64,000 nucleotides of DNA from an uncultured Ruminococcus sp. Lineage in GTDB: Bacteria > Bacillota > Clostridia > Oscillospirales > CAG-272. Both the position numbers and the translations under genes were made by a program. The notes beneath the pieces were generated by a model. That model was not told the origin of the DNA and ran no database searches. It was given only the letters and a program-made list of their open reading frames with translations. Location of the stretch: positions 10,014 to 74,013 of the forward strand of contig CACZAZ010000003.1 of NCBI GenBank assembly GCA_902779285.1, written 5' to 3'. Below, in pieces: positions 905 to 62,666 of the stretch. Every line of letters starts with the position of its first letter. Positions within the stretch are counted from its first letter, which is position 1.

Positions 905-1474
905 ATGAAGCAAATTGACATTCGGGATTTCTTTCGAGAAAGAAGCGAAGGGGTCGCATCCGGCGGTAGTCCGGCATCCGTAAAGGAACCCGTCTCCAGC
1001 GGTAAATCGTCATTCGGCAGCAGCCCCGTCAAGTACAAAAACGAAGCGGGGAAAAAGGAAAAAAACGACCGACCGCGCGTTTCGCGAGGAGGAAGCAGAT
1101 CCGGGTTTTCCTCTGTTGAAGCCGAAATGATCTCCGACTACATTTCCGCCTCAACTTTTTCATCTAAGGATGTAACTATAGATAGAATTATTGATATCTA
1201 TACTGAGATAGACGGTATACTTGAAATAATTGATGAGTGTTTCGGAGATTTCTTGCAAACGAAAAAGGAGAAAATGGGCTTCTTTGGTAGATTAACGGAT
1301 TCTAACAAAAAAAGAGAGAAATGGTATCTCCAGGCAGCGAGAATGCCGCTAGTCAAAAACTGCAATCGCAGATTGAACGAGCTTATAAGGAATTTGCGGA
1401 AGTTGGGAGACGAGGACGGGTATTCGTATGTTTGGGAACAACTGAACGACCTGTCTACGCAATTCTACGATTGA
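905..1474 (+). CDS. hypothetical protein with a Ser/Gly/Lys/Arg-rich, probably disordered N-half and a helical C-half
   Basis: 189-aa ORF with GAGAGG 8 nt upstream of the ATG, starting 5 nt after the previous stop. I recognise no family. Confidence 0.5.
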   Translation: MKQIDIRDFFRERSEGVASGGSPASVKEPVSSGKSSFGSSPVKYKNEAGKKEKNDRPRVSRGGSRSGFSSVEAEMISDYISASTFSSKDVTIDRIIDIYTEIDGILEIIDECFGDFLQTKKEKMGFFGRLTDSNKKREKWYLQAARMPLVKNCNRRLNELIRNLRKLGDEDGYSYVWEQLNDLSTQFYD

Positions 1475-4280: not shown

Positions 4281-5207
4281 ATGCCGGAATTGAATCAACT
4301 GCAGAAGAAGATCCTCGAAGAGGTCGCGGACCTGCACAAGGTGCCGGAGGGGGCGTACAACATCCGCTCGGACAGCAAATCGGTCGGGAGGCGTTCGACC
4401 GAGAACATCGAGATCGTCCCCAAGACCGACGTCAGCGGGCTGGATATCAGGATCCGTCCGGGGACAAAGAACGAGAGCGTGCATATCCCGGTCATCCTGA
4501 CCGAGAGCGGGCTCCGCGAGACCGTCTATAACGATTTCTATATCGGCGAGGGCGCCGACGTTCTGATCGTCGCGGGCTGCGGCATCGACAACTGCGGGAA
4601 TCAGGATTCCGAACACGACGGGATCCACCGCTTTTTCGTCGAGCGCGGCGCGTCGGTGCGCTACGTCGAAAAGCACTACGGACAGGGCGACGGGAGAGGA
4701 AAGCGCATCCTCAATCCCGTGACCGAGGTGACGCTTGCCGACGGCGCGTCGATGGAGATGGAGATGGTCCAGATCAAGGGGGTCGACGACACCGACCGCA
4801 GGACCGTCGCCAAACTCGGCGCGGGCGCGAAACTGGTCGTGCGCGAACGGCTGATGACCCACGGAGAGCAGAGAGCGCTCAGCACCTACGACGTCGAACT
4901 GAACGGCAAAGGCGCCACGGCAGACGTGGTGTCGCGCTCGGTCGCGAAGGACGATTCCCTCCAGCGTTTCGACGCCAAGATCACCGGCAACGCCGAGTGC
5001 CGCGGGCATACCGAGTGCGACTCGATCATCATGGACCGCGGGCGCATCCTCGCCGTCCCGGCGCTCGAAGCCAACGACGTCGACGCCGCGCTGGTCCACG
5101 AAGCCGCCATCGGCAAGATCGCCGGCGCGCAGTTGATCAAACTGATGACCCTCGGGCTGACCGAACGCGAAGCCGAGGAACAGATCGTCAACGGCTTCCT
5201 CAGCTGA
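4281..5207 (+). CDS. SufB/SufD-family Fe-S assembly protein
   Basis: The C-terminal motif HEAAIGKIAGAQLIKLMTLGLTEREAEEQIVNGFL is typical of the SufB/D beta-helix family. The start lies 1 nt after the sufC stop. Confidence 0.75.
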   Translation: MPELNQLQKKILEEVADLHKVPEGAYNIRSDSKSVGRRSTENIEIVPKTDVSGLDIRIRPGTKNESVHIPVILTESGLRETVYNDFYIGEGADVLIVAGCGIDNCGNQDSEHDGIHRFFVERGASVRYVEKHYGQGDGRGKRILNPVTEVTLADGASMEMEMVQIKGVDDTDRRTVAKLGAGAKLVVRERLMTHGEQRALSTYDVELNGKGATADVVSRSVAKDDSLQRFDAKITGNAECRGHTECDSIIMDRGRILAVPALEANDVDAALVHEAAIGKIAGAQLIKLMTLGLTEREAEEQIVNGFLS

Positions 5208-9909: not shown

Positions 9910-9985
9910 TGCGGCATCGCCAAGCGGTAAGGCAACGGACTCTGACTCCGTCATCACCTAGGTTCGAATCCTAGTGCCGCAGCCA
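9910..9985 (+). tRNA. tRNA-Gln (anticodon CTG)
   Basis: tgcggcatcgccaagcggtaaggcaacggactCTGactccgt...ctaggttcgaatcctagtgccgcagcca has the same layout as bacterial tRNA-Gln, with an encoded CCA. Confidence 0.85.
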
Positions 9986-11112: not shown

Positions 11113-11141
11113 TTGCAAATAAAGCAAACGCGTGGTATAAT
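11113..11141 (+). promoter_or_regulatory. promoter of the heparinase-like gene pair
   Basis: TTGCAA-N17-TATAAT (ttgcaaataaagcaaacgcgtggtataat). Confidence 0.5.
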
Positions 11142-11214
11142 GAATTCACGAAGCAAACCGCATCCGGTTTCCCCTGTAAACGGTATGAAACAATACGCAT
11201 TCGGAGGAAAAACC

Positions 11215-13947: not shown

Positions 13948-14011
13948 TCCCGCAGGAGCGCAACGTTTTTCCCCGGACCGGGGATCAAGCATATTTGAAA
14001 AGGGAACCGTT

Positions 14012-16756
14012 ATGAAAAAAGTACTTTATCTTACCGCGATCGTTCTGTGTCTCGTCCTCTCGCTTGCGGCGCTGACCGCCTGCTTCGGAGGGGGAGACGA
14101 TACCGAAAAGACCGAGGCGCCCGGGACCACCGAAGCCGAGACCCACGAACACGTCTGGGACGAGGGGCGCGTGATCCGAGAGGGGAGCTGCAACGCCGAG
14201 ACCCAAGAGGAGACAAAAGGCGAGATCCTCTATACCTGCACCGTCTGCGGTGAAACCAAGACCGAGGAGACCGACGGGCATACCTGGAACGACGGACGGG
14301 TGGTCGACGCCGCGGACTGCACCCATACCGGGATGCGGATGTATACCTGTACCGTTTGCAATGCCAAGAAGACCGCGGCGATCCCCACCAACGGGATGCA
14401 CAAATTCACCGACGGCTATCTCGTCGTCGCGCCGACCGAGAATTCCGCGGGTCAGCGCGCCGGGATCTGCTCGATCTGCGGCGCCGTCAGCCGCGTGGAG
14501 GACGAAATGACCTACGAGGAGTACAGTTCCAAACTCAACGCCGCGACGACGGCGATCGGCGCTTTCAAGACCGAATCCTTCGGCGGCAGGGAGCATACCA
14601 AGATGTCGACCGACAAGTATTCCGCCCCCGGAGCGTATCCGACGGCGGGCGAGCATCCGCGGATCTTTATGAACAAGACCACGATCAGACAGGTGCGCGC
14701 TGCGCTGCAGGATCCCGCGAACGCCGCCACCGTGACGTCGCTTATCGAAGTGGCGAACGCTTACGCGTCCGGGAAGGTCACCGAATACAGCGCCGGGGTG
14801 CTCAACTGTGCGCGGGCGAAGGCGTTTCTGTACCAGATGACCGGCGTCAAACTCTACGGCTACGACGCGATCCGGCTGATGAAGGAGTTTCTGACCACCT
14901 GTACCTCGGTCGGGAGCAGCGGCGATCCCTGCCGCAAATACGGCGAGATCATGTTCGCTACGGCGGTGGTTTACGACTGGTGCTACGATCTGCTCACCGC
15001 GACCGACAAGACGCAGTTCATCTCGGGCGTCGAGCATAAGGTCGTAAACGACTCCCACATGGAGGTCGGCTTCCCGCCGTCTGGACAATGGGCGATCACG
15101 GGTCACGGCGCCGAGCGCCAGATCCTGCGCGACTATCTCTCCTTCGCGCTCGCCATCTACGACGAGGAACCGACGTGGTATCAGTTCATCGGCGGACGGA
15201 TCTATCAGGAATACGTTCCGGTCCGCGATCTCTATTACGAGGCGGGCTATTATCCGCAGGGCGTTTCGGTCTACCTGTCTCTCCGTTTCGCCGCCGACCT
15301 CTGGAGCGCGTGGCTGCTCAAGTCCGCGACCGGGGATATGCCCTACGACGCCGACGGGATGAAACAGGTGATGCACACGGTCTACTCGTACGTCGTCGAC
15401 GGCGCCAATCGCTTCTTTGAGGAGGGCGACGACGAGGCGAGGGACGGCGTCGAGAATATGAGGCAGTTCGCGACCGCCGCCCTGATCTCCGCGTATCTTT
15501 TCGACGATCCGACGGCGATGAGTTGGGCGGATTTCGCAAGCTACTCCTATATCGAAAAACCGTATATTATGATCCTGAAATCGAGCGGCGTCGAGGGCAA
15601 GGCGGCTACGCGCTACGACGGGCTGGACCTGATCCTCTACAACGGCGGCTGGCTCGGGCAGGTGATCGCGCACAGCAACTGGACCAACACCGGCGCGACG
15701 GTTTTGATGAAGATCGGGAACCACAACAACGCAAACCACGATCACGCCGACTCGGGCGCGTTCCAGATCTACTACAAGGGACTGCTCGCGGGCGACTCGG
15801 GCTTCTACGACAAGTACGACTCGAATCACCATCTGAATTATCACAAGTCGACCATCGCGCACAACTCGATCGTTCTGCAGAAGGGATCGAACCTGATCCA
15901 GCAGAGACGGCCGCCCGAAATGAAATCGCTGGAGCCCGCAAGCTACGACCGGGCGTGGACCAACAGCCAGTATCAGTTCGGGACCACCACGGGGCACGCG
16001 GGCGCGTATCTCGACGAGGCGAAGACGAAGCCGAAGTACGCCTACATCGCGGGCGATATCGCGAAGGCGTACGCCTCGACCGTCACCCGGCTCGACAGGC
16101 GGATGCTCGCGGTCTACGATACCGGGAACGCCTCCGTGCCGATGTACTTCTTCGTCTACGACAATATCACCGCGAGCGACAGTTCGTATCAGAAGGTCTT
16201 CCTGCTGCACACGATCAACGAACCGACGATCTCGGGCAAGACCGTCACCGTCGTCAACGGGGACGGAAAACTGGTGCTCCAGAACGTCGTCGGCAATACC
16301 ACGGTCTCGAAGGTCGGAGGCGCGGGGCACAACTACGACGTCGGCGGCTCGCAGATCAACACGTTGAAAGGCGAGGACGACGGCTACTGGGGACGCGCGG
16401 AGATCAAGACCGTCGCCGGGAACGAAAACGACGTGATGCTGAACGTGATGTACGTCTGCGACAAGAACAAGACGCCGGAGGGACAGACCGCGACCGCGTT
16501 CTCGAACACCCTAATCACCGGCTCCGTGATCGGCAAGGTCGCCGCCGTGTTCGTCAACGCGGCGGAAAGACGCTCGAACGCGCTCACCTTCACCGCCCCG
16601 GGATCGGGCGACCTGACCTACTACGTCTCGGGCGTCAAGGCGGGGAATTGGACTGTCTCGTCGAGCGGCGGGACCCAAACCGTCGCCGCGACGGAGGACG
16701 GCGGACTGCTCGTCTTTACCGCCCCGGCGGGAACGGTATCGCTCACTCCGCAGTAA
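14012..16756 (+). CDS. paralogous heparinase II/III-like lipoprotein
   Basis: Lipobox LTAC. NHDHADSGAFQIYYKG...HKSTIAHNSIVL. It is collinear with the upstream paralog along its whole length. Confidence 0.7.
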   Translation: MKKVLYLTAIVLCLVLSLAALTACFGGGDDTEKTEAPGTTEAETHEHVWDEGRVIREGSCNAETQEETKGEILYTCTVCGETKTEETDGHTWNDGRVVDAADCTHTGMRMYTCTVCNAKKTAAIPTNGMHKFTDGYLVVAPTENSAGQRAGICSICGAVSRVEDEMTYEEYSSKLNAATTAIGAFKTESFGGREHTKMSTDKYSAPGAYPTAGEHPRIFMNKTTIRQVRAALQDPANAATVTSLIEVANAYASGKVTEYSAGVLNCARAKAFLYQMTGVKLYGYDAIRLMKEFLTTCTSVGSSGDPCRKYGEIMFATAVVYDWCYDLLTATDKTQFISGVEHKVVNDSHMEVGFPPSGQWAITGHGAERQILRDYLSFALAIYDEEPTWYQFIGGRIYQEYVPVRDLYYEAGYYPQGVSVYLSLRFAADLWSAWLLKSATGDMPYDADGMKQVMHTVYSYVVDGANRFFEEGDDEARDGVENMRQFATAALISAYLFDDPTAMSWADFASYSYIEKPYIMILKSSGVEGKAATRYDGLDLILYNGGWLGQVIAHSNWTNTGATVLMKIGNHNNANHDHADSGAFQIYYKGLLAGDSGFYDKYDSNHHLNYHKSTIAHNSIVLQKGSNLIQQRRPPEMKSLEPASYDRAWTNSQYQFGTTTGHAGAYLDEAKTKPKYAYIAGDIAKAYASTVTRLDRRMLAVYDTGNASVPMYFFVYDNITASDSSYQKVFLLHTINEPTISGKTVTVVNGDGKLVLQNVVGNTTVSKVGGAGHNYDVGGSQINTLKGEDDGYWGRAEIKTVAGNENDVMLNVMYVCDKNKTPEGQTATAFSNTLITGSVIGKVAAVFVNAAERRSNALTFTAPGSGDLTYYVSGVKAGNWTVSSSGGTQTVAATEDGGLLVFTAPAGTVSLTPQ

Positions 16757-16795
16757 AGGCGCGCGCGGAACCAACCGAAAAACAAACAAAAATAC

Positions 16796-16832
16796 AAAAC
16801 GCCCCCCGTTTCGCGGGGGGCGTTTTGTTTTA
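16796..16832. terminator. bidirectional terminator between convergent genes
   Basis: aaaacgccccccg tttc gcggggggcgtttt, flanked by A- and T-runs. Confidence 0.7.
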
Positions 16833-16834
16833 GA

Positions 16835-17278
16835 TCAGATATCTTCGATCGAATCAAAGAGAGCGGCGAGGATCGAATCGTATTCGTCGCCTTTCCCGCC
16901 GATCTCGACGCTGCAGGCGATCATCCGCTCCTTTTTGACGACGGTGAACCGCGTCACGAAACGAAGCCCGCGGAAACTCGAGTAGAGCGTGTCCACCCGG
17001 GCGCGCCCGTCGGTCTTGAAAGTGCGCTCGTCGATTTTCAACCCCAACCTTTTCATGTTTTTCTCGTTCAGGGCGACGAGTTCGAGATACTCCTCCTCGT
17101 TCTCCGCGACGTCGTCCGGGGACAGGGAGATCGTGCGGGGCGTCCCATCCTCGTATTTCACGAAAACGTGAAGCGTGTCGCCGTCGATATCGTACTTCCC
17201 GTAATCCTCTTTCGGGATCTCCGCGTAATCGTCGGGCACGACGAAGGAGAAACCGTATTCCGTGTTTTCGATCCGCAT
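16835..17278 (-). CDS. hypothetical protein (147 aa)
   Basis: ORF with AAAGGA upstream of the ATG. I recognise no family. Confidence 0.55.
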   Translation of the reverse strand: MRIENTEYGFSFVVPDDYAEIPKEDYGKYDIDGDTLHVFVKYEDGTPRTISLSPDDVAENEEEYLELVALNEKNMKRLGLKIDERTFKTDGRARVDTLYSSFRGLRFVTRFTVVKKERMIACSVEIGGKGDEYDSILAALFDSIEDI

Positions 17279-39604: not shown

Positions 39605-41017
39605 ATGAAACGCGACGTAAACGGCGTCCGGCTGACAGCCGTATTGCTTTTGATCCTGACTCTGATCTTCGCCTTTTCGGGTTGTACTGCGTTCGCTTTG
39701 CGCCCCGCCGAAACGGGGGAAACCGACGCGACGGCGCCCGAAACCACGGGGAGCGGGGAAAAACAGCCGTCCGAGCTGGTCTCGCTGCTTCTTGCAAACG
39801 AAACGATCCCCGATTTCAACCAAACGGTCGTCGAGAATATCCACTACTACTATTCGCACTATTTCATCGGCGACCTCGGGACCGACGCCGAACTTGCGGC
39901 GGCGATCGCGGAGTTCTACGCCGAATACCGCGATCTGATCGACGAGAGCGACCCGGGTGAAGTGACCGACCTCCTCTGCGAGAGTTATCTTGCCGCCGCG
40001 GGGGATAAATACGCCTACTATATGAATCCCGAGGCGTACGCCGAATACACGTCGGATATGACCGGCAACTACGTCGGGATCGGGGTCCAGGTCACCAACG
40101 ACGCGGTGGCGCGGATCATCACGGTCACCGCCGTCTTTCCCGACACGCCCGCGTACGAGGCGGGGGTGCTGGCGGGCGACGTCATCGAGGCGGTGGGGGA
40201 CACTCCGGCGTCGACCATCTCGTTTGCAGAACTCGTCAACCGCATCCGCGGTGAGGAGAATACCGAAGTAACGGTCACTTTCGCGCGGGGCGGCGAGACC
40301 TACACCCGCACCATGACCCGCCGCACGGTCGTGCAGGTCACGGCGTCGGCGTCGGTCCTGCCCGGATCCCCGAAGATCGGCTTGATCCAGATCACCGAGT
40401 TCGACGAGACCACGGCGCCGCAGTTCAAAGCCGCGCTCGACGGTCTCTTCGACGAGGGGATCGACGGACTGATCTTCGATCTAAGGAACAACCCCGGCGG
40501 GCTTCTCTCCTCGATCCTGACGGTGCTCGATTATCTGGTGCCGAACGGAACGCCGCTCGCCAACTACGAATACTACGACGGCTCGGTCGAGTACGACGTG
40601 GCGAACTGTGCAAGTTACGACAAGTCCGCCGTCGACCGTAAACTGCCTTCGGATCTTCCGATCGCCGTTCTCTGCAACGAGCATACCGCGTCTGCGGGCG
40701 AGCTCTTCACCTGCGCGATGCAGGATTACGCGAGAGAGGGGCTGCTCGACGTGAAGATCGTCGGAACCGTGACCTACGGAAAGGGAACGATGCAGACGCA
40801 GGTCCGGCTGGGCTCGGGCTGCGCGACCACCATTTCCTTCGCGCACTACAATCCGCCCTACTCCCCGAACTACGAGGGGAAGGGGATCACGCCGGATCTT
40901 GTCGTCGAACTCTCCGAGGAGGCGCAGAACAAGTCCGTCTGGGCGCTCACCGACGAGGAGGACGTGCAGATGTCGGCGGCGATCGATTCGGTCACGGAAC
41001 GGGTGGTGAGTGAATGA
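39605..41017 (+). CDS. S41 family C-terminal processing peptidase
   Basis: PDZ region (AGVLAGDVIEAV), then LIFDLRNNPGGLL and SASAGELF...GKGT. Confidence 0.8.
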   Translation: MKRDVNGVRLTAVLLLILTLIFAFSGCTAFALRPAETGETDATAPETTGSGEKQPSELVSLLLANETIPDFNQTVVENIHYYYSHYFIGDLGTDAELAAAIAEFYAEYRDLIDESDPGEVTDLLCESYLAAAGDKYAYYMNPEAYAEYTSDMTGNYVGIGVQVTNDAVARIITVTAVFPDTPAYEAGVLAGDVIEAVGDTPASTISFAELVNRIRGEENTEVTVTFARGGETYTRTMTRRTVVQVTASASVLPGSPKIGLIQITEFDETTAPQFKAALDGLFDEGIDGLIFDLRNNPGGLLSSILTVLDYLVPNGTPLANYEYYDGSVEYDVANCASYDKSAVDRKLPSDLPIAVLCNEHTASAGELFTCAMQDYAREGLLDVKIVGTVTYGKGTMQTQVRLGSGCATTISFAHYNPPYSPNYEGKGITPDLVVELSEEAQNKSVWALTDEEDVQMSAAIDSVTERVVSE

Positions 41018-42381
41018 ACCGGCAGGACGAATTCGCGTCCCCCGAACGAAAAAAGGGGACCCCGTCCCGTCCGCTGCTCGTCACGCTGCTCGCCTGTCTT
41101 CTGACCGGGATCGTCGTGTTCCTCACGACCTTCTTCGCGCTCACGGGGTACTACGGATCCGAGATCGAGGATTACCGGAACAACTACGTGCGGCGCTCGG
41201 ATAAGTACGACCCGGGACTGCTCGAAGCGGCGCTCGGACTGCTCGACGCCAACTCGATCTTCGATCTCCCCGACCGGGGCGATCTGACCGAGACCATGGT
41301 AGAGGCGGCGATCTCCGCGATGGGCGACCGCTACGGAACTTTCTTTACCGACGCCGAATACGCCTCGTATTCGTCGGATCTGTCGGGCAATTTCGTCGGG
41401 ATCGGCGTCACGCTCCAGAAAAACGCCGACGGCAACGCCGAGGTCGTTCTGGTCCACGCGGGCTCGCCCGCGCAAGACGCGGGACTGCTCGCCGGAGACG
41501 TTCTGACCGAGATCGACGGCAAATCCTTCGCGGACGGCTACGACGAGGCGTTCAACGCGATCGTCGGAGAGGCGGGGACCGTCGTCAACGTCTCGTTCTT
41601 CCGCGCGGGCGAGCCGATGAACGCCTCCGTCACGCGGGCGGAGGTGACCAAGCAGACCGTGATCTCCCGGATCGAAAATTACGGCGGGAGTAAGATCGGC
41701 TACGTTCATATCACCGGCTTTGACGGACACACCTACGAACAACTCGAGAGGGCGGTGTCGGAACTGGAGGGCGAGGGGATCGACGCGCTGACCTTCGACC
41801 TTCGCTCGAACGGCGGCGGGCTTCTGTCGTCGGTCGGGACGGTGCTTGCGTATCTGCTCCCGGACGGCGTGATCGCCTACGTGGATTACCGCTCCGAGTC
41901 GCTTTCGGACTATACCATTTCCGCGGAGGACGGATACCTGAAAAACGGCGGATCCTCCACCCTCTACCGCGAGGGAGGTCACGAACTGTCCCCGGATCTT
42001 CCGGTCGCGGTCCTGGTGAACGGCGGGACCGCTTCGGCGGCGGAACTGTTCACCGCGGCGCTCCGCGACTACGCCGACCCCGCGTTCGCCTCCGCAGCCG
42101 GGGTGACGCCGCTCGACGTGACGGTCGTGGGAACGACGACCTACGGAAAGGGGACCGTGCAGACCACCTATACGGTCGGCGCGGACAGTTATCTCAAACT
42201 GACCGTCGCGCGGTACAGCCCCCCCACCAACGTCAACTACGACGGGGTCGGGATCACCCCCGGGCTTGTCGTGGAATTGCCGGAGGAACAGGCGGGGGTC
42301 AGCATCTATCTTCGCACGCGGGATAACGACGCGCAGCTTGCGGCGGCGCTCGCGTATCTCGACCAAAAAGTCAACCCTTAA
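41014..42381 (+). CDS. second S41 family peptidase
   Basis: LTFDLRSNGGGLL, TASAAELF and YGKGTVQ. The ATG overlaps the previous stop (ATGA). Confidence 0.8.
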   Translation: MNRQDEFASPERKKGTPSRPLLVTLLACLLTGIVVFLTTFFALTGYYGSEIEDYRNNYVRRSDKYDPGLLEAALGLLDANSIFDLPDRGDLTETMVEAAISAMGDRYGTFFTDAEYASYSSDLSGNFVGIGVTLQKNADGNAEVVLVHAGSPAQDAGLLAGDVLTEIDGKSFADGYDEAFNAIVGEAGTVVNVSFFRAGEPMNASVTRAEVTKQTVISRIENYGGSKIGYVHITGFDGHTYEQLERAVSELEGEGIDALTFDLRSNGGGLLSSVGTVLAYLLPDGVIAYVDYRSESLSDYTISAEDGYLKNGGSSTLYREGGHELSPDLPVAVLVNGGTASAAELFTAALRDYADPAFASAAGVTPLDVTVVGTTTYGKGTVQTTYTVGADSYLKLTVARYSPPTNVNYDGVGITPGLVVELPEEQAGVSIYLRTRDNDAQLAAALAYLDQKVNP

Positions 42382-42957: not shown

Positions 42958-44827
42958 ATGGCAGACGTACAGAACAACAATCCGGGCAGCGAACTTGCGG
43001 TCCGCCGCGAGAAACTGGCGGCGCTGGTCGCGGAGGGGAAGAACCCCTTTACCATCACCAAATACGAGGTCACGGCGCACGCCTCCGAGATCGTCTAGAA
43101 TGATGAGCCGCCGGATCATGGGCAAGGCGGCGTTCGTCCATCTGATGGACGGATCGGGAAAGATCCAGCTTTACGTGAAGCGCGACGACGTCGGAGAGGA
43201 CGCCTACGCCGCGTTTAAAAAGTGGGACGTCGGGGACGTCGTCGGCGTACACGGCTTCGTTTTCAAAACGCAGACCGGGGAGATCTCGGTGCATTGCGAC
43301 GGTATCGTTCTGCTCGCCAAGTCGCTTCTCCCCCTGCCCGAGAAGTTCCACGGGCTGACCAACACCGACCTCCGCTATCGGCAGCGGTACGTCGACCTGA
43401 TCATGAACCCCGAGGTCAAGGATACCTTCGTCCGCCGGAGTAAGATCCTTGCCGAGATCCGGGCGTACCTGGACGGAAAGGGATTTCTCGAGGTCGATAC
43501 CCCGATCCTGACCCCGTTCGAGATCGGCGCGTCGGCGCGTCCTTTCTTCACGCACCACAACACGCTGAATATGGATATGGTCCTCCGCATCGAGACCGAA
43601 CTCTATCTGAAACGGCTGATCGTCGGCGGATTCGAGCGGGTCTACGAGGTGGGACGGATCTTCCGCAACGAGGGGATGGATCCCAAGCACAACCCCGAAT
43701 TCACCTCGATCGAACTCTATCAGGCGTACACCGACTATAAGGGGATGATGGACCTCGTCGAGGAACTCTACACCCTGCTCGCCAAGAAGATCTGCGGCTC
43801 GACCGTGATCCCCTATCAGGGACAGATGATCGATATGGGGCATTGGGAACGGCTCACGATGGTCGAGGCGGTGAAAAAGTATTCCGGCGCCGACTACAAC
43901 GCCTGGAAGACCGACGAGGACGCCCGCAACGAGGCGGCGAAACTCCACGTTCCGGTCCCCGCAGACGCCACGAAGGGAACCGTGCTCGCGGAACTCTTCG
44001 ACGCGTTCGTTGAGGAGAAACTGATCCAGCCGACCTTCATCTACGACTATCCCGTGGAGAACAGCCCGCTCGCGAAGCGGAAACCCGAGGATCCCGCGTT
44101 CACCGAGCGTTTCGAGTATTTCATCAACGCGACCGAGTTCGGCAACGCCTTCAGCGAACTGAACGACCCGATCGATCAGAAGGGACGGTTCGTCGCGCAG
44201 GTCGAGGCGAGACGCCGCGAGGACCCGAATACCAAAGCCAGGGTCGACGAGGACTACGTCACCGCGCTCGAATACGGTATGCCCCCGACGGGCGGGCTCG
44301 GCTTCGGGATCGACCGGCTCGTGATGCTCCTGACCGACAGCGCGTCGATCCGCGACGTCTTGCTCTTCCCGACGATGAAGCCGCTGGATCAGGACAAGCC
44401 CGCCGACGCTCCCGCGGAAACCGCGGCAGAAACCTCCGCCCCCGAAGTGATCGATTTCTCGAAGGTGGAGATCGAGCCGCTGTTTTCCGACACGGTCGAT
44501 TTCGAGACCTTCTCGAAGTCGGATTTCCGCGCGGTCAAGGTGCTCGCGTGCGAGGCGGTGCCGAAGTCGAAGAAACTCTTGAAGTTCACCCTGAACGACG
44601 GTACCGGGACCGACCGCGTCATCCTCTCGGGGATCCACGCGTTCTACGAGCCGGAGCAGCTCGTCGGCAAGACCCTGCTCGCCATCGTCAACCTCCCGCC
44701 CCGCGCCATGATGGGCATCGAGTCGAACGGGATGCTGATCTCCGCCGTCCACAACGAGGAGGGCGAGGAAAAACTCCATCTCCTGATGCTCGACCCGCAC
44801 ATCCCCGCCGGCGCGAAGATGTATTGA
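42958..44827 (+). pseudogene. lysS: lysyl-tRNA synthetase (class II) interrupted near codon 47, with a C-terminal Trbp111/EMAPII-like tRNA-binding domain; either a frameshifted gene or an assembly error
   Basis: Frame 1, 42958-43098, encodes MADVQNNNPGSELAVRREKLAALVAEGKNPFTITKYEVTAHASEIV and then TAG. The rest of LysRS (RMMSRRIMGKAAFVHL... through class II motifs 1-3) continues in the next frame, with ATGs at 43100 and 43103. Confidence 0.6.
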
Positions 44828-45097
44828 CGACGACACGCACAGACGGCACAGGACGGAAAACAAAAAGGGACTATCCGAAATTCGAGGTGCTTTCCGCTTT
44901 GTTCCGTTATTCCGCATAGCAAATTGCGATTAAGGACGAAAACCACCCGCTTTCGCGAGTGGTTTTCTCCTTTTTTATTTGTATTTTTGTTTTCCTCTCG
45001 CCGTTTGCTTGCTCTCGGCGTATGAAGATACGCCTTCGGGTCGCAAACGACGACCCTGCACTCGCCTGTGCGCGCCTGACAGCAATAGCTGGCGCAG
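44828..45097 (+). repeat. copy C of a ~270-290 nt gene-3'-flank repeat, in the sense orientation of lysS
   Basis: It starts at the first base after the lysS stop and is collinear with the reverse complements of 45241-45520 and 60558-60830. The order is leader, terminator, U-rich spacer, second hairpin (44998-45053), then a tail ending gctggcgcag. Confidence 0.75.
44939..44980 (+). terminator. lysS terminator, part of repeat copy C
   Basis: aaaaccac ccgctttcgcga gtggtttt, followed by ctccttttttattt. Confidence 0.7.
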
Positions 45098-45240
45098 TTA
45101 ATAAGAAAAAAGAAACCAAGTGCGCTGACGCAAGTACGAAAGCGCGACTTTTCCGTTCGCCTTGCTTTGTGGTAAAATACCGCACCGTTCCTTCGGAGCG
45201 ATGGTCGGCAACGTCTTATCAACCCATCCGCGCGTCGTCC

Positions 45241-45520
45241 CCTTGACCCTACCCGCGCCAGCTCAAGTTATCAGACGCGCGGAGGTGCGTGCAGAATCCC
45301 CGTTCTCGACCCGAAACTGTACAAGCGTACTGTGAGCGGTCGAGAACGGGGAGAGGAAAACGAATTTGAAAAAAAGAAGAAAACCTCCCGCGGCTCCGCG
45401 GGAGGTTTTCAACCTTAATTTGCGTTTATCAATGCAAGGAGTTTTCACAGAGCAGAAAGCTTTGACGGATTCATTATAGATTCCATTCGTTTTCCGGTCT
45501 GTGCGCGCATACGCGTGTCG
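45241..45520 (-). repeat. copy A of the 3'-flank repeat, in the sense orientation of the Gfo/Idh/MocA gene
   Basis: It starts at the first base after the stop codon at 45521-45523. It contains terminator 45384-45405 and the 14-bp hairpin ccccgttctcgacc/ggtcgagaacgggg (45298-45351). Confidence 0.75.
45365..45405 (-). terminator. terminator of the Gfo/Idh/MocA gene, part of repeat copy A
   Basis: cctcccgcgg/ccgcgggagg hairpin, followed on the minus strand by ttttcttcttttttt. Confidence 0.7.
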
Positions 45521-46711
45521 TCAGATCTTCGGGATCTTGATCTCGATCTCTTTCCCGATCGCCGCCGACTTCGCGATGCCGTCGAGGATCGCCTGGTTGT
45601 AGAGGATCTCGCTCGACGGAACGGGAGCGGCGCCGCCGTTCTTGCTCGCGTCGAGGAAGGTGCGGATCTTCTGGTCGAAGAGCGAAGGCATACCGGCTTT
45701 CGAGCCGATCAGCGGGATCTCGGTGCAGACCTGTTCGCCCGCGACCTCGTGATAGATCTTCAGGGGCTTGTCGAACGAGCCGTTCCAGCACTCGGTCGAG
45801 GGGATACGGAGCGAGCCCTTGGTACCCATGATGATCGTGTCGCCCGAGGTGTCGAGGTTCATCGCCCACGCGATACGGAAGTCGAGGATGATCCCGCCCT
45901 CAAGACGAATGAACGCGGCGGCGAAATCGTCGACCGAGAAGACCTTCGCGTATTCGGGATGACCCTTCTTGACGTAACCGGAGTAGTTCGGATCCTTGCC
46001 GAAGAAATCGGACTTGTAACCCGAGACGGTCAGGGGTTTCGGATAGCCGAGCGCGTTCAGCACGCAGTCGAGCGAGTAGCATCCGATATCACCGAGCGCG
46101 CCGAGGCCCGCGGTCTTGTCTTCAATGAAGGTGGTCCCGTAGGGGAAGGGAATACCGCGCCGCCGGCCGCCGCCGGTCTGGACGTAGTAGATCTTGCCGA
46201 GTTCGCCCGACTGCACGATCTTCTTGATCATCTGCATATTGGCGTCGAAACGCGGCTGGAAACCGATCGAGAGGACCTTGCCGCTCTTCTTCTCGGCGCG
46301 CATGATCTCGACCGCCTCTTCGGTGGTCACGCACATCGGCTTCTCAAGCAGGACGTTGACGCCCGCGTTCAGCGAGTCGATCGCGCAGATCGCGTGGGTG
46401 CGGTTGTAGGTGCAGACGCTGACGCAGTCGAGCTTCAGCGACTTGTCCGCGAGCATCGCCTTGTGGTCGGCGTAGTCGGTCTTGACGCCCTCGATCCCTC
46501 TGTCCTTGAAAAACGCTTCGGCTTTTCCGGGGATCAGGTCGCAGCCCGCGACGATCTCGACGTCGGGCTGTCTCAGGTAGCTCGACAGGTGGGTCTCGGC
46601 GATCCAGCCGCACCCGATGATACCGACGCGAACTTTTTTCGACGCGTCAACCTCCGCCTCGTCTTTGCTGACGTCCATAAAAGCGTTCAGGGAATCGTCC
46701 TTCTTTGCCAT
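45521..46711 (-). CDS. Gfo/Idh/MocA family oxidoreductase
   Basis: KVRVGIIGCGWIAETHL Rossmann motif and an EKPM block. The start is at MAKKDD, with GGAGGA upstream. Confidence 0.8.
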   Translation of the reverse strand: MAKKDDSLNAFMDVSKDEAEVDASKKVRVGIIGCGWIAETHLSSYLRQPDVEIVAGCDLIPGKAEAFFKDRGIEGVKTDYADHKAMLADKSLKLDCVSVCTYNRTHAICAIDSLNAGVNVLLEKPMCVTTEEAVEIMRAEKKSGKVLSIGFQPRFDANMQMIKKIVQSGELGKIYYVQTGGGRRRGIPFPYGTTFIEDKTAGLGALGDIGCYSLDCVLNALGYPKPLTVSGYKSDFFGKDPNYSGYVKKGHPEYAKVFSVDDFAAAFIRLEGGIILDFRIAWAMNLDTSGDTIIMGTKGSLRIPSTECWNGSFDKPLKIYHEVAGEQVCTEIPLIGSKAGMPSLFDQKIRTFLDASKNGGAAPVPSSEILYNQAILDGIAKSAAIGKEIEIKIPKI

Positions 46712-46784
46712 GATTGTTCCTCCGTTCAAATTCTCGTTTGATTCGGTTGTACGCCTGCACGCGCGGGCGTCTTTTACCGTTTAC

Positions 46785-49128: not shown

Positions 49129-49283
49129 AAAAAGCGCCCCCGGAATTTGCCGCAAGCGGCAATATCCGCGCGCCCTCCGCCTGACAAGCGAGCTTGTCGA
49201 TCTCCGGGCGGCGGATGCGGACCGGATTCCGCTCCGCGCAAGCGCGGGCGGAGCCCGATCCGATAAAGGGTGGCGCCTCCAAC

Positions 49284-49310
49284 GCAAAAACACCCCCGCG
49301 GACGGGGGTG
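49284..49310 (-). terminator. terminator of the tRNA operon
   Basis: The minus strand reads cacccccg tccg cgggggtg, followed by ttttt. It is nested inside a longer hairpin that reaches into tRNA-Cys. Confidence 0.7.
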
Positions 49311-49317
49311 TTTGCGT

Positions 49318-49391
49318 TGGAGGCGCCACCCGGAATCGGACCGGGGATGAAGGTTTTGCAGACCTCTGCCTTACCGCTTGGCTATGGCGCC
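49318..49391 (-). tRNA. tRNA-Cys (anticodon GCA), with a non-canonical T-loop
   Basis: The reverse complement is ggcgccatagccaagcggtaaggcagaggtctGCAaaaccttcatccccggtccgattccgggtggcgcctcca. The T-loop reads TCCGATT where TTCGATT is expected. Confidence 0.8.
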
Positions 49392-60238: not shown

Positions 60239-60451
60239 TTATTCGTCTTCTCCAAACATCCGGTCGACGGCGTGATCGAGCGCGTCGGCGCATTTCTTGC
60301 CCGCCTTTTTCATTGCGCATTTGGCGTCGCTGCGCTTGTACCAGAGCAGCGTTCCCATAGCACCCAGCCCCATCGCCGCCGCGATCCAGAACACCACCGC
60401 CGGCGAACAGCACTCCCGCCGCTTCTTTTTCTCTTTGCAAAGCATCATCAT
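60239..60451 (-). CDS. small (70 aa) single-TM protein
   Basis: AAGGAG lies 8 nt upstream of the first of three ATGs. The TM segment is AVVFWIAAAMGLGAMGTLLW. Confidence 0.5.
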   Translation of the reverse strand: MMMLCKEKKKRRECCSPAVVFWIAAAMGLGAMGTLLWYKRSDAKCAMKKAGKKCADALDHAVDRMFGEDE

Positions 60452-60557
60452 TCCGAGAACTCCTTTTTGTCCTATTGTGCCACGCCGCTTCCTTTCTTAT
60501 TCCTTGGTTTCTTTTTTCAAGCAAACCGCGCCGGCAAACGCCAAGCCATTGGAAACA

Positions 60558-60830
60558 TTTTCAACCTAACCGCGCCAGCAGATGCCGCCTGACAGGAGGA
60601 GGCAGATGCAGAATTCGCGCTTGCGACCCGACGCTGTACAATCGTACTGCAAGTGGTCGCAAACGCGGATAGAAAAACAAAAAACAAATCAAAGAAGAAA
60701 ACCGCCCCTCGGGGCGGTTTTCAACCTCTATTGCGTTTTACTATGCAGGTTTTTCAAACAGGGTGGAATGCTTTAACGGACTTATATATTCCATCCTTTT
60801 TGTTTTTCGGTCTGCGCTGAAATCCGCCTG
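60558..60830 (-). repeat. copy B of the 3'-flank repeat, in the sense orientation of glmS
   Basis: It starts at the first base after the glmS stop. It contains terminator 60702-60717 and the hairpin tcgcgcttgcgacc/ggtcgcaaacgcgg (60615-60668). The part distal to the terminator is bracketed by ttttcaacct at 60558 and 60718. Confidence 0.75.
60685..60717 (-). terminator. glmS terminator, part of repeat copy B
   Basis: ccgccc ctcg gggcgg, followed on the minus strand by ttttcttctttgatttgtttttt. Confidence 0.7.
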
Positions 60831-62666
60831 TCACTCCACCGTGACGGATTTGGCGAGGTTACGGGGCTGGTCCACGTCGCATCCGCGGGCAAGCGACACC
60901 TGGTACGCGAGCAGCTGCATCCCGGTCGCCAAAGCGATGGGCGCGACGGTCTCGGGGCAGTCGGGGCAGACAAAGGCGACCTTCGCCATCTCGCGGAGTT
61001 CCGTGACGCCCTCTTTCCCTGCGGCGAAGACGAACAGTTTCGCTCCGCGGGCGACGACCTCTTTCATATTGCCGACCATCTTCTCGCGGATGCCGGCTTC
61101 GCTCGAAATGGCGACGACCGGAGTCCCCGGCTCGATCAGCGAGATGGTGCCGTGCTTCAGTTCTCCCGCGGCGTACGCCTCGCTGTGGATGTAGGAGATC
61201 TCTTTCAGTTTCAAGGACGCTTCGGCTGCGAGCGTGGCGTCGAAGAGTCGACCGATAAAGAACATATCGTCCTTTTCGGCGATGTCTGCGGCGATGGATT
61301 TGAGTTCCTTTTCGCGGGCGATGATCTTCTTGATCTCGGCGGGGAGGGCGATCGTCAGATCGGAAACGTACTTCCGGGCGACCTCCTCCGTAACGGTCCC
61401 GCGGATCATCCCCGTCCAGACCCCGAACAGGGTCATCAGGGCGGTCTGCACGGTGTACGCCTTGGTGCTGGCGACGGCGATCTCGGGTCCCGCGTAGGTG
61501 TAAAGCACCGCGTCGGATTCACGCGCGACGGTCGAGCCGACGGTGTTGACGATCCCGAGCGTGAAAGCGCCCGCCGCTTTTGCAAGCCGGAGCGCGGCGA
61601 TGGTGTCGGCGGTCTCGCCCGATTGCGAGATCAGGATCACGAGTTCGTCGGGCTCGATCACCGGATTGCGGTAACGGAACTCCGACGCGATCTCGGCGGA
61701 CGCGCGGACGCCCGCGACCCGTTCGAGGACGGCGGCTCCGGTAAGTCCGGCGTGGTAGGCGGTCCCGCAGGCGACGATACGGACCGAACGCACCGCTTTG
61801 ATCCGTTCGGGTTTCAGTCCCTCCGGGGCAAAATCGGGGATCCCGTCCGCGATGCGGGGAAGCAGGGTCTTGCGAACGGCGTCGGGCTCCTCGTAGATCT
61901 CCTTGTGCATAAAGTGGGCGTGACCGCCTCTCATCGCGGCGGCAAGATCCCAGAGAGCGGTCTGCGGCTCGCGCTTGACCTCGTTCCCCTCGGAATCGTA
62001 GACCGTCACCGTATCGCGGGTGATCCTTGCGACGTCGCCGTTTTCGAGCGCGAGATAGCGGCGGGTATAGGCGAGGATCGCCGTCACGTCGGAGGCGATC
62101 AGGTTCTCGTTTTCCCCGAGTCCCACGATGAGCGGGCTGTCCTGCCGCGCCGCCCAGATCTCGCCGGGCTTGTCTGCGAACAGGATCCCGAACGCGTACG
62201 AGCCGCGGATCTTCTTGAGCGCTTTGAGGATGCCCGCAAGACGGTCTCCCTCGCGGGTGCAGGAGTCGATCAGGAGTGCCGCCGCCTCGGTGTCGGTATC
62301 CGACTTGAAGGCGTAGCCCTGATTCTCGAGTTCGAGTTTCAGTTCGCGGCAGTTCTCGATGATCCCGTTGTGGACCAGCATCAGCCGCTCGTTCCCGTGG
62401 GGGTGCGAGTTGACGTCGGTCGGCGCGCCGTGCGTCGCCCAGCGGGTATGTCCGATCCCGCAGCGGGTGTTGACGTTCTCCTCGCTCGCCAGTTTGTTCT
62501 CAAGACAAGCGATCTTGCCCGCCGATTTGACCGAGCGGAGAGCGCCGCCCTTTTCGAAGAACGCGATCCCGGAGGAGTCGTATCCCCGGTATTCAAGCGC
62601 GTGAAGACCGCCGAGAATGACCGCGTCCGCTTTTTTGGGACCGGTATAGCCGATAATGCCGCACAT
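60831..62666 (-). CDS. glmS: glutamine--fructose-6-phosphate aminotransferase
   Basis: The N-terminus MCGIIGYTG, two SIS domains, and the C-terminus NLAKSVTVE. Confidence 0.9.
   Translation of the reverse strand: MCGIIGYTGPKKADAVILGGLHALEYRGYDSSGIAFFEKGGALRSVKSAGKIACLENKLASEENVNTRCGIGHTRWATHGAPTDVNSHPHGNERLMLVHNGIIENCRELKLELENQGYAFKSDTDTEAAALLIDSCTREGDRLAGILKALKKIRGSYAFGILFADKPGEIWAARQDSPLIVGLGENENLIASDVTAILAYTRRYLALENGDVARITRDTVTVYDSEGNEVKREPQTALWDLAAAMRGGHAHFMHKEIYEEPDAVRKTLLPRIADGIPDFAPEGLKPERIKAVRSVRIVACGTAYHAGLTGAAVLERVAGVRASAEIASEFRYRNPVIEPDELVILISQSGETADTIAALRLAKAAGAFTLGIVNTVGSTVARESDAVLYTYAGPEIAVASTKAYTVQTALMTLFGVWTGMIRGTVTEEVARKYVSDLTIALPAEIKKIIAREKELKSIAADIAEKDDMFFIGRLFDATLAAEASLKLKEISYIHSEAYAAGELKHGTISLIEPGTPVVAISSEAGIREKMVGNMKEVVARGAKLFVFAAGKEGVTELREMAKVAFVCPDCPETVAPIALATGMQLLAYQVSLARGCDVDQPRNLAKSVTVE

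Follow-up and report, generated by a model that had tools for sequence, protein, structure and literature searches.

The closest published analogue of the repeat family described here is SPRITE, a ~105-nt sequence with a single ~18-bp duplex, a long U-rich tract and AAAA/TTTT ends, which is found in one species group, is enriched close to coding-sequence 3' ends and in the gaps between convergent genes, and has ~63% of its copies on the leading strand (PMC3049150). A co-opted role in termination has been suggested for SPRITE (PMC3049150). The structured repeats BOX, RUP, ERIC and Correia can influence termination or the stability of mRNA (PMC3049150, PMC3184786), and stop-codon anchoring with strict sense orientation is not reported for SPRITE, BOX or RUP as described in PMC3049150. 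REP sequences are single palindromes of 20-40 nt with a GTAG motif, and the RAYT gene is flanked by REPs (PMC3116915). BOX, RUP, ERIC and Correia elements have terminal inverted repeats and occur in both orientations; BOX, RUP and Correia elements also have target-site duplications. To our knowledge, precise stop-codon anchoring has not been reported for REP, ERIC or Correia elements either. MIRU repeats, reportedly described by Supply et al. in 1997, are said to be 40-100 bp long, to lie between the genes of one operon in the orientation of the flanking genes, to overlap the upstream stop codon with their ends, to form tandem units and to contain short ORFs that overlap the flanking stop and start codons and couple translation; they reportedly have no terminator and no elaborate fold.

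A group of uncultured rumen Clostridia contains a previously undescribed family of non-coding repeats of ~280 bases that starts at stop codons, of which no published account was found in the literature searched. The window (the whole 64-kb stretch of DNA analysed) holds three full copies, A, B and C, and one short copy. The initial annotation had described three full copies of one architecture, and the alignment bears this out, with a mean column identity of 72% across ~280 nt. In the window, a profile built from the three copies recovers these three as its only full matches (E values of 1e-89 to 1e-92), and a 21-base gapped pattern drawn from them has three matches, with 0.00 expected. The features of the window copies are as follows.

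16757..16840, + strand: short form or remnant, abutting the TAA stop of a heparinase-like gene (14012-16756)
44828..45110, + strand: copy A, full element, directly 3' of the lysS TGA (44825-44827), its head with three GAC units
44832..44864, + strand: copy A, 5' strands of the closing helices, placed by column mapping and pair counts
44832-44841, + strand: copy A, 5' strand of helix P1
44849-44852, + strand: copy A, 5' strand of helix Pa
44855-44864, + strand: copy A, 5' strand of helix P2, GGAAAACAAA
44934..44970, + strand: copy A, hairpin H1 (GAAAACC-stem-GGUUUUC), terminator-like module
44971-44985, + strand: copy A, U-rich tract directly 3' of H1
44986..45076, + strand: copy A, 3' half
44986-44995, + strand: copy A, 3' strand of P2
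44998-45053, + strand: copy A, bulged hairpin H2
45055-45058, + strand: copy A, 3' strand of Pa
45067-45076, + strand: copy A, 3' strand of P1
45088..45120, + strand: copy A, tail GCTGGCGCAG and end module AAGAAAAAAGAAACCAAG
45121..45224, no strand assigned: spacer between the convergent copies A and B, ~99% identical in L113, with weak hairpins
45225..45239, - strand: second head, GACGACGCGCGGATG, directly after the tail of copy B
45240..45522, - strand: copy B, full element, overlapping the oxidoreductase TGA stop by its first GA
45255-45262, - strand: copy B, GCTGGCGC
45297-45352, - strand: copy B, H2
45376-45414, - strand: copy B, H1
45521-46729, - strand: GFO/IDH/MocA oxidoreductase gene upstream of copy B
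60503..60556, - strand: extra tail after copy C, ...GCCGGCGCGG and TTGAAAAAAGAAACCAAG
60557..60835, - strand: copy C, full element, its GA shared with the TGA stop of glmS
60572-60579, - strand: copy C, GCTGGCGC
60614-60669, - strand: copy C, H2
60694-60726, - strand: copy C, H1

The elements end raggedly. Copy B is followed by a second head, as if another unit had begun there but was missing, and copy C by a second tail (to 60503), which is a partial second unit or 'mini-copy'. The end module AAGAAAAAAGAAACCAAG of copy A is also found after copy C and after L060. The syntenic copy in L113 matches copy A at 98% identity, and the spacer between copies A and B may represent the displaced native 3' ends of both genes. 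The short copy consists of a head (AGGCGCGCGCGGA), ACCAACCGAAAAACAAA, a terminator-type hairpin and TTTTGTTTT; the orthologues of its heparinase-like gene in L117 and L124 carry full copies. Short forms retain the head, P2 and the terminator module only; a permissive motif scan for them returned mostly noise, and few were recognised by eye (L008, L137 and the window copy, at 16771).

A search with DNA patterns and the profile identified ~60 further profile-confirmed copies, seen only in five genomes and 24 metagenome contigs. They sit behind unrelated genes in at least five species; the search for further copies in relatives, suggested by the initial annotation, yielded many. The five genomes are metagenome assemblies labelled 'Clostridia bacterium', two of them named as yak rumen, and the family is restricted to one lineage, a small clade of uncultured, rumen-type Clostridia. 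Every copy was ascertained through patterns in the region from H2 to the tail, and the conservation of that region is therefore overstated. Of 101 pattern matches in the genome collection, about 75 lack a profile match and arose by chance in high-GC genomes; in the viral collection both pattern matches, found in 69%-GC sequences, were likewise due to chance. Contig ends hold many of the copies, and the repeats break assemblies.

The family had been described as unlike any recognised RNA family or mobile element, and database searches agree: the repeat has no blastn match in plasmids or phages, and in an Rfam 15 search of the window it matches no family at the gathering score, only tRNAs and Gut-1 passing. 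In 44700-45650, PyrR gives the best relaxed Rfam match, scoring 29.6 bits and thus far short of its threshold of 54. Nor does the element contain a conserved ORF, as the initial annotation had also stated. Its sense frames are closed; an antisense frame is open over 35-50 codons in many copies but was rejected as coding, having no conserved start, shifts of frame between copies and compensatory changes that would be non-synonymous.

The repeat is located at gene 3' ends in 35 of 36 loci, and its orientation is always sense to the upstream gene; antisense copies are absent. In the window, the junctions are TAT TGA|CGACGAC between LysS (with a C-terminal tRNA_bind domain) and copy A, ATC TGA|CGACAC between the GFO/IDH/MocA oxidoreductase and copy B, and GAG TGA|CAGGCGG between GlmS (with its canonical ...KSVTVE* end) and copy C, all three gene assignments being confirmed by Pfam. 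Copies A and B lie on opposite strands, 140 nt apart, each behind its own gene. A start was counted as stop-adjacent if the element begins 0-5 nt past the stop of an ORF in the sense direction, or has its GA in common with that stop. By this definition, 38 of 50 non-tandem copies are stop-adjacent (binomial P ~1e-37 against the 5.7% of random positions that pass the same test), as are 31-32 of 36 independent loci, which supports the claim of a genuine family that begins at stop codons in the sense orientation. The remaining copies start after the T-run of another terminator (three loci) or are the second units of head-to-tail tandems. The preceding stop codon is TGA in 22 cases, TAA in 14 and TAG in two, and the GA of the element completes the stop in 13 of the 22 TGA cases. 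No sequence target was found at the left junction across loci. The host genes are unrelated and include those for LysS, GlmS, PFOR, RNase J, AlaS and TypA, and by crude ORF calls the gene that follows the repeat is convergent in 28 cases and co-directional in nine.

The element folds into one closed structure with five helices. In a 46-copy alignment, 94.9% of the helix cells are paired, compared with only 40-55% in slid controls, and both sides change in 31 of 58 pairs. Compensatory cells number 273 against 101±8 in shuffled alignments, none of 500 shuffles reaching the observed value, and single-copy folds have z-scores of -4.8 to -8.4. Structure-preserving covariation, proposed as a check on the family, is thus strong. 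Helices P1 and Pa, formed by the first 25 nt, pair with a segment ~250 nt downstream, the first ~13 nt pairing with a segment ~25 nt upstream of GCTGGCGC; within the head, nt 4-13 recur in inverted form at nt ~258-267 (P1). The leader and the U-rich spacer that the initial annotation had listed as separate parts are the two strands of a covarying long-range helix, P2 (GGAAAACGAA / UUCGUUUUCC), which encloses the AU-rich leader and the GC-rich hairpin H1. H1, set between an A-tract and a U-tract in the form of an intrinsic terminator, and P2 are followed by the long bulged hairpin H2 and a conserved tail of ~35 nt (GCUGGCGC) that lies beyond the right arm of P1. RNAalifold predicts an alternative hairpin in the tail, with C-G/U-G alternation. 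G·U pairs outnumber A·C pairs by 141 to 79 over all helices and by ~51 to 27 when the invariant U·G pair and helix P1 are set aside, whereas in P1 alone A·C exceeds G·U; these counts only lean towards folding of the sense strand, with P1 pointing the other way.

H1 has the features of an intrinsic (Rho-independent) terminator: a GC-rich hairpin with a U-tract, downstream of an ORF and in the same orientation. Consensus terminator sites are called at H1 in all three full window copies; across the 46 copies the median free energy of the core stem is -11 kcal/mol, and the 12 nt behind the stem contain a median of 8 T, compared with 5 in the reverse direction. These properties support the claim of a built-in terminator hairpin, and transcription probably ends at H1. 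The stems of copies A, B and C do differ in sequence, as had been noted; however, the reading of each stem as the terminator of its own gene fails, since each stem type recurs at other loci. H1 is therefore a covarying part of the element rather than of the host gene, and a model in which the gene's own terminator is flanked by two half-elements is rejected, as genes without any relation to each other are followed by identical stem variants. Because the presumed terminator precedes the 3' strands of P1, Pa and P2 as well as the entire H2, efficient termination would keep the conserved fold from arising in RNA. Other window genes that were inspected end in ordinary terminators, and these too use GGAAAAC...GTTTT flanks.

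Relatives show that copies are gained, lost and replaced. Where the element would be, relatives with 80-96% identical LysS have ordinary terminators or other genes: at 80-82% LysS identity a plain terminator lies 4-12 nt after the stop, and at 96% and 93% identity the element is absent and homology stops at the stop codon. L113 has one extra unit relative to the window, with flanks 98-99% identical and the indel breakpoints at the head sequence. Head-to-tail tandem units are common, with their joins placed precisely at the head; about half of the copies have an extra head behind the tail, and nested insertions and decay forms occur; in no copy are the 5' and 3' parts more than ~110 nt apart. 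Copies taken from different loci of a single metagenome resemble each other at 95%, compared with 83% for positional orthologues, and some copies spread along with duplicated paralogous genes. Clustering of the ORFs in ~350 kb of flanks recovered only paralogous surface/lipoprotein families and housekeeping genes, and no recurrent transposase-like or reverse transcriptase ORF. Neither a transposase nor a target-site duplication was found for the repeat, and clear terminal inverted repeats at both extremities were not seen, the right arm of P1 lying inside the conserved tail; the evidence for calling the repeat 'mobile' is thus indirect.

Among described repeats, SPRITE shares most with this family, although it can be compared by description only and the host lineages are far apart. 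Both are small interspersed sequences without an ORF, AT-richer than the genome, with a hairpin and a U-rich tract, and both are enriched at gene 3' ends and between convergent genes. In contrast to SPRITE, the element is ~280 nt long, its five covarying helices enclose the terminator, head-to-tail tandems occur as well as short or mini forms, and it abuts stop codons in strict sense orientation. Like BOX, RUP, ERIC and Correia elements it is non-autonomous, highly structured and apparently co-transcribed with its neighbours, and like BOX it is modular, with a variable number of internal units; unlike in them, no terminal right-hand repeat or duplication was found, and its position and orientation relative to the ORF are fixed. 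With REP, BIME and REPIN sequences it has in common that they are extragenic palindromes often found in 3' UTRs, are lineage-specific and undergo within-genome concerted evolution; however, no REP/BIME unit is present in the alignment and no RAYT-like ORF in the flanks. Sense orientation, overlap with the stop codon and tandem units recall MIRU, whereas the element has no conserved ORF and lies between transcription units.

A MITE-type target-site duplication was rejected, because the TGA after the right arm of P1 stays TGA where the left stop is TAA (L018, L068); no other flanking direct repeat was seen around the element, and no recurrent transposase-like ORF in the ~350 kb of flanks represents a parent insertion sequence. 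Elements derived from IS200/IS605 have subterminal hairpins at both ends, a fixed left tetra- or pentanucleotide target and an orientation tied to replication; the element departs from this pattern, with no fixed left flank and no tnpA or tnpB in the flanks, and with copies A and B on opposite strands. Integron attC sites are also structured, lie directly after an ORF in its orientation and are recognised by fold rather than by sequence, but they are 57-141 nt long with paired R''/L'' and L'/R' boxes in cassette arrays beside intI, whereas the element is 280 nt long and lies behind scattered housekeeping genes. The attC assignment was rejected, since only a GTTRRRY-like motif in the tail fits, the head has no RYYYAAC and no integrase lies near any copy. 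Class C group II introns insert after terminators in sense orientation, which only the three after-terminator loci resemble, and no intron domain (for example, domain V) was matched in Rfam. The check for an IS, MITE or Rfam match thus returned none.

We hold, with somewhat more belief than doubt, that the element is a lineage-specific, non-autonomous interspersed repeat that supplies the terminator of the gene it follows and that spreads, or is homogenised, through recombination. The element would be co-transcribed as the 3' UTR of the upstream gene, and H1 would end most transcripts, replacing the plain terminator seen at the same spot in relatives. The whole fold would form on read-through RNA, or possibly on single-stranded DNA, and would be the constraint that holds the family coherent. 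Copies would duplicate head-to-tail at the 15-nt head sequence, and recombination would homogenise copies between loci; this manner of spread we infer from the tandem joins and the likeness of copies within a metagenome. Selection for termination alone accounts for neither the anchoring at 0-5 nt from the stop nor the absence of antisense copies, and the reading also gives no account of the helices that span the terminator.

Four other readings take up these features. A ribosome parked on a stop codon would cover the first 15 nt downstream, which here hold the 5' strand of P1, and the element could be a translation-sensing RNA device of the 3' UTR that acts in cis and benefits the host. The closed fold of P1, Pa, P2 and H2 would form only on untranslated or read-through mRNA, the 3' partner of P1 (CGCGCGYC) would alternatively pair with the tail GCUGGCG or a repeated head, and the switch would set mRNA decay, processing or read-through. 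The start fixed exactly at the stop codon, whichever stop is used, the constant sense orientation, the behaviour of the 15-nt head as a separable unit, the covarying long-range helices and the predicted tail hairpin with its C-G/U-G alternation all suit such a device, which we consider possible but improbable: no output is evident, there being nothing downstream to regulate, because most copies precede a convergent gene or another copy; the dozens of copies, with their tandems, nested insertions and decay forms, suggest a selfish element and not a regulator; and the element is missing from close relatives. Rather unlikely is a DNA mobile element acting through folded single-stranded DNA, on the model of IS200/IS605 derivatives, REP with RAYT or integron attC, in which the helices would be the substrate of a recombinase encoded elsewhere and the 15-nt head its crossover or core site. 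Tandem joins, extra heads and the window/L113 breakpoints all fall at the head, the pairing constraint covers the whole element, also beyond the terminator, the G·U excess is as modest as expected for DNA folding, and many tails contain GTTAGGT, a match to the integron core GTTRRRY, or GTTAGGG, which differs from that core in the final base. However, orientation tracks the upstream gene and not replication, as the opposed copies A and B illustrate; the junction has no sequence target, the head has no inverse core RYYYAAC, and there is neither an integrase/array context nor, in the flanks, an HUH-type or other transposase; and 280 nt exceeds any attC or REP.

An RNA-mediated (retro-)mobile 3' UTR would arise by template switching onto RNA 3' ends, namely a terminated transcript, an mRNA cut at the A-site stop codon or another element RNA, followed by copying to DNA and recombination. 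All three classes of junction (stop codon, end of a terminator T-run and previous tail) are natural RNA ends, the GA that completes TGA in 13 of 22 cases resembles a microhomology junction, tandem concatemers occur, and P1 joins the 5' and 3' ends of the element. Against it, no reverse transcriptase lies near any copy, the 3' ends are ragged and not defined, and positional conservation across species indicates mostly vertical inheritance. We know of no mechanism for inserting such cDNA without downstream homology, which also counts against this reading and leaves it very unlikely. Local duplication or a chance likeness of ordinary terminators, with no biology at the level of a family, deserves almost no credence. 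The GGAAAAC...GTTTT flanks of ordinary window terminators and the copies that spread with paralogous genes are in keeping with it, but this reading is refuted by the zero expectation for the pattern in the window, by the ~60 copies behind unrelated genes in at least five species, and by homology over 280 nt with covariation. Cutting across these accounts is the idea that the position of the element is set by translation termination itself, the element being either a mobile 3'-UTR module that reports translation of the upstream ORF or an RNA-end appendage fixed through cDNA; we regard this as rather unlikely.

On the preferred reading, that of an interspersed repeat supplying terminators, one repeat family would provide a visible share of the gene ends in the 64-kb window, a clear case of an interspersed repeat in terminator position. 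The repeat will confuse the prediction of terminators, small RNAs and operons in these abundant, uncultured Clostridia. Covariation across a helix system that spans the terminator raises the question of how much read-through RNA is functional, the alternative being a single-stranded DNA intermediate. Precise, sequence-independent anchoring at stop codons in strict sense orientation suggests either that targeting relies on an unrecognised mechanism or that the terminating ribosome is functionally linked to a 3'-UTR structure. If true, either version in which translation termination sets the position would make this a gene-end-seeking type of element not described in bacteria.

The three stretches that the initial annotation had joined into one repeat family are homologous, aligning with 72% mean column identity across about 280 nt. 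Searched with a profile of these copies, the 64-kb window yields three full matches and no more (E 1e-89 to 1e-92); a 21-base gapped pattern derived from the copies occurs three times, where chance predicts 0.00. Sequence inspection bears out for all three the noted start at a stop codon and the sense orientation. Pfam assigns the host gene products as LysS with a C-terminal tRNA_bind domain, a GFO/IDH/MocA oxidoreductase and GlmS; the glmS stop codon is native, because GlmS retains its canonical ...KSVTVE* C-terminus. As annotated, neither strand holds a conserved ORF and the element corresponds to no known RNA family, Rfam giving no match at gathering score and none near at relaxed thresholds. 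The copies in the window, including a short fourth one, are as follows (the head being the first 15 nt of the element):

44828-45110 (+): copy A, after lysS
45522-45240 (-): copy B, after the oxidoreductase gene
60835-60557 (-): copy C, after glmS
16757-16840 (+): short copy (head, CCGAAAAAC, terminator hairpin, TTTTGTTTT), directly 3' of the TAA of a heparinase-like gene (14012-16756)

Other features lie nearby or elsewhere in the window. In the A-B spacer, TGGTAAAAT (45165-45180, +) resembles an extended -10 promoter element directed into copy B, antisense; it is conserved in L113 (L-numbers denote other loci or contigs from genome and metagenome collections), and a promoter scan made no call. 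Right after copy C, a 69-aa ORF (60243-60452, -) has a ribosome-binding site (AAAAGGAG) and apparently one transmembrane helix, and the equivalent position on the contig of a relative with 94% identical GlmS also has a predicted 69-aa gene. A Gut-1 RNA (RF01706; 10025-10099, +) scores 54.1 bits, just over the gathering score of 50, 43 nt 3' of a tRNA gene (9910-9982). A 42-nt inverted repeat (49254-49345; 86% complementary, 8-nt gap) overlaps the end of a tRNA cluster (tRNA 49321-49391, minus strand). Tandem paralogue pairs encode two large heparinase-like secreted proteins of about 75% DNA identity (11113-16756, +) and two S41 peptidases (39605-42381, +).

Among 63 copies with an intact 5' end, 38 start at, or only a few nt from, the stop codon that ends a long sense ORF. 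Another 12 form the second unit of a head-to-tail tandem, 12 fall into an 'other' class and one sits at the edge of a contig. The stop-adjacency test is passed by 5.7% of random positions in the same DNA (binomial P about 1e-37). None of the copies found is antisense to its upstream gene. Grouping by upstream flank, followed by re-examination of the 'other' class, gives 36 independent loci:

31 of 36: stop-adjacent
3 of 36: element begins where the T-run of a different terminator ends
1 of 36: mnmG (gidA), L052 2898-2939 (-) and L055 ~970-1014 (-), no stop codon at the junction
1 of 36: L063, situation ambiguous

At mnmG the reading frame continues for 41 nt inside the element, so that the last 14 residues (...LLIWLSSRRRQAAQTGKRGE*) are element-encoded. 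Two of the 31 stop-adjacent loci (L003_2143 and L114) carry an unrelated ~45-nt repeat nested just past the head; one more copy of this kind, L052_2052, was grouped with L117. Typical junctions are TAA followed by GACGACGCGCG, and T followed by GACGACGCGCG, where the GA of TGA is common to stop and element. Stop codons at the stop-adjacent copies are TGA (22), TAA (14) and TAG (2), so the element does not target one type of stop codon. Its host genes have no relationship to one another and are often housekeeping genes; they include those for PFOR, type III glutamine synthetase, RNase J, AlaS, TypA, KDG kinase, MATE, LysR, DUF1508 and ABC permeases.

A MAFFT alignment of 46 distinct copies, built without fitting to any structure, supports long-range helices together with a terminator-like hairpin (H1) and a long bulged hairpin (H2), at these alignment columns:

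4-13 / 258-267: helix P1
18-25 / 246-253: helices P1b and Pa
28-37 / 175-184: helix P2 (GGAAAACGAA / UUCGUUUUCC)
114-128 / 146-159: hairpin H1
187-197 / 234-244, plus two inner helices: hairpin H2

Standard pairs occupy 94.9% of helix cells against 85.9% in shuffles, and 31 of the 58 pairs change on both sides. Compensatory cells number 273 against 101±8 in shuffles, a value reached by 0 of 500, and since the host organisms are closely related, not all of these changes are independent events. When the 3' partners are slid by 1-3 columns, only 40-55% of cells pair and the covariation score, 0.289 in the true register, does not exceed 0.109. Single copies fold with z-scores of -4.8 to -8.4 relative to shuffled sequence. 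H1 has the form of a consensus intrinsic terminator, the 12 nt after its stem holding a median of 8 T in the sense direction versus 5 in the reverse, and transcription presumably terminates there.

In a one-genome-per-species pattern scan, profile-confirmed copies occur only in five 'Clostridia bacterium' metagenome-assembled genomes, two of them named as yak rumen; the other ~75 pattern matches are chance, in high-GC genomes. A stricter pattern on metagenome contigs returned 24 loci, all profile-confirmed (24/24). Two pattern matches on viral contigs are both chance, and blastn of the element against plasmids and phages gave no match. The total is about 52 near-full copies plus partial ones, all ascertained via H2-to-tail patterns, so that conservation of that region is overstated. 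Many lie at contig ends, as expected of a repeat at which assemblies break. G+C content is 52% in the element and 60% in the surrounding DNA, where ORF calling is crude, downstream-context counts being affected most.

The element is modular. The head (GACGACGCGCGGATG) recurs immediately past the tail, the conserved 3' end, in about half of the copies, as the start of a tandem unit, as an orphan (window 45239-45225) or as the head of a mini-copy. Mini-copies, consisting of head plus tail, occur in L018, L063, L116 and the window (60503-60556), and short forms comprise the head, P2 5' strand, terminator and P2 3' strand; one follows glmS in L137, a relative whose GlmS fragment is 99% identical. 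Further modules and nested repeats are:

L003 2100-2138, L010 1219-1256, L113 5619-5656, L137 3107-3144, also L021, L052, L092, L114, L122: ~45-nt repeat inside copies, GAACCCCC...GGGGAACCCC (also written GAACCCCCRACGCT...CGGGGAACCCC)
L068 ~2230-2280: ~45-nt repeat, reverse orientation
L035 4362-4469, L087 1215-1319, L119 2315-2412: ~100-107-nt nested repeat (...GTCGCCGTCG...GGGCGACAC...)
Window 45103-45120 (+) and 60503-60520 (-), L060: end module (TT)GAAAAAAGAAACCAAG, just past the last GCYGGCGCGG of some copies
L007, L109, L116, window copy C: alternative end module GAAARATGTTACCRA, after the copies

The ~45-nt repeat is confined to copies of the element or their immediate neighbourhood, usually just past the head, with one case in the H1 loop (L010), and is absent from the 64-kb window. 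The ~100-107-nt repeat has one identical insertion point, in the H2 5' stem, in three copies.

Copies also turn over. L113 is syntenic with window 44760-45560, with flanks 98-99% identical; one additional unit follows its oxidoreductase stop codon, with breakpoints at the head. The L113 unit in the position of copy B matches copy B at only about 85% identity and differs in the H1 stem. The L109 copy shares 95% identity with a copy from a different locus in that metagenome (L116), versus 83% with the orthologue at the corresponding position in L062. Where LysS is 80-82% identical, relatives carry a plain terminator 4-12 nt past the stop codon and lack the element. Those with 96% (L133) and 93% (L134) identical LysS also lack it, synteny with L133 (~4945-4950) and L134 (~2335-2340) ending exactly at the lysS stop codon (window 44825-44827); beyond it lie, in L133, a ribosome-binding site and a 106-aa gene in the same direction and, in L134, unrelated sequence. 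Across the loci, at least 12 genes belong to the heparinase-like family and many of them precede a copy of the element; orthologues in L117 and L124 carry full-length copies versus the short form in the window. Some copies were duplicated along with paralogous lipoprotein genes, with a clear promoter of the downstream gene after the element:

L116 640-760 and 5210-5330 (+): textbook promoter (TTGCAA, 17 nt, TATAAT), ribosome-binding site and start of a paralogous lipoprotein gene, downstream of two copies

Thus, gene-plus-element units were duplicated as blocks.

The element belongs among small structured interspersed repeats. Among published elements, SPRITE from Streptococcus pneumoniae comes closest, a terminator-like repeat of ~105 nt that is enriched at CDS 3' ends between convergent genes (PMC3049150); enrichment at gene 3' ends and the convergent-gene setting are common to both. 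However, the element is nearly three times longer, forms a closed five-helix structure, is fixed to the stop codon in the sense orientation, makes tandems and mini forms, and has an unrelated host lineage. Of classical MITE features, neither a target-site duplication nor, in about 350 kb of flanks, a parent insertion sequence was found; the head forms an inverted repeat with a segment near the right end (P1), but a conserved tail of about 35 nt lies outside that right arm. Nor does the element fit the tested defining features of REP/RAYT elements, integron attC sites, derivatives of IS200/IS605, group II introns or MIRUs.

Downstream of the H1 terminator lie H2 as a whole and the 3' strands of helices P1, Pa and P2; therefore, the fold requires read-through RNA or single-stranded DNA. 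A weak test of the folding strand counts 141 G·U against 79 A·C over all helices. Leaving out the invariant U·G pair and P1 gives about 51 against 27, and P1 itself leans the opposite way. The element may fold as RNA. A 3'-UTR RNA device that senses translation is unlikely; in that reading the 15-nt head would approximate the stretch covered by a ribosome on the stop codon. Less probable still is a structure-specific recombination substrate in single-stranded DNA, and an RNA-mediated element joining onto natural RNA ends seems very improbable; about 350 kb of element flanks contain no recurrent transposase or reverse transcriptase.

The best-supported reading of the family is a lineage-specific, non-autonomous interspersed repeat, which takes the position of a gene's terminator and probably acts as one. 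Structural constraint would keep the family coherent. In this reading copies are gained, lost, tandemly duplicated and homogenised through recombination; the data show the family, its placement, its structure and its turnover, whereas the way it spreads is inferred. A plain 'selfish terminator' leaves unexplained the conserved pairing across the terminator, the strict sense orientation and an anchoring to stop codons that is independent of sequence and accurate to a few nt.
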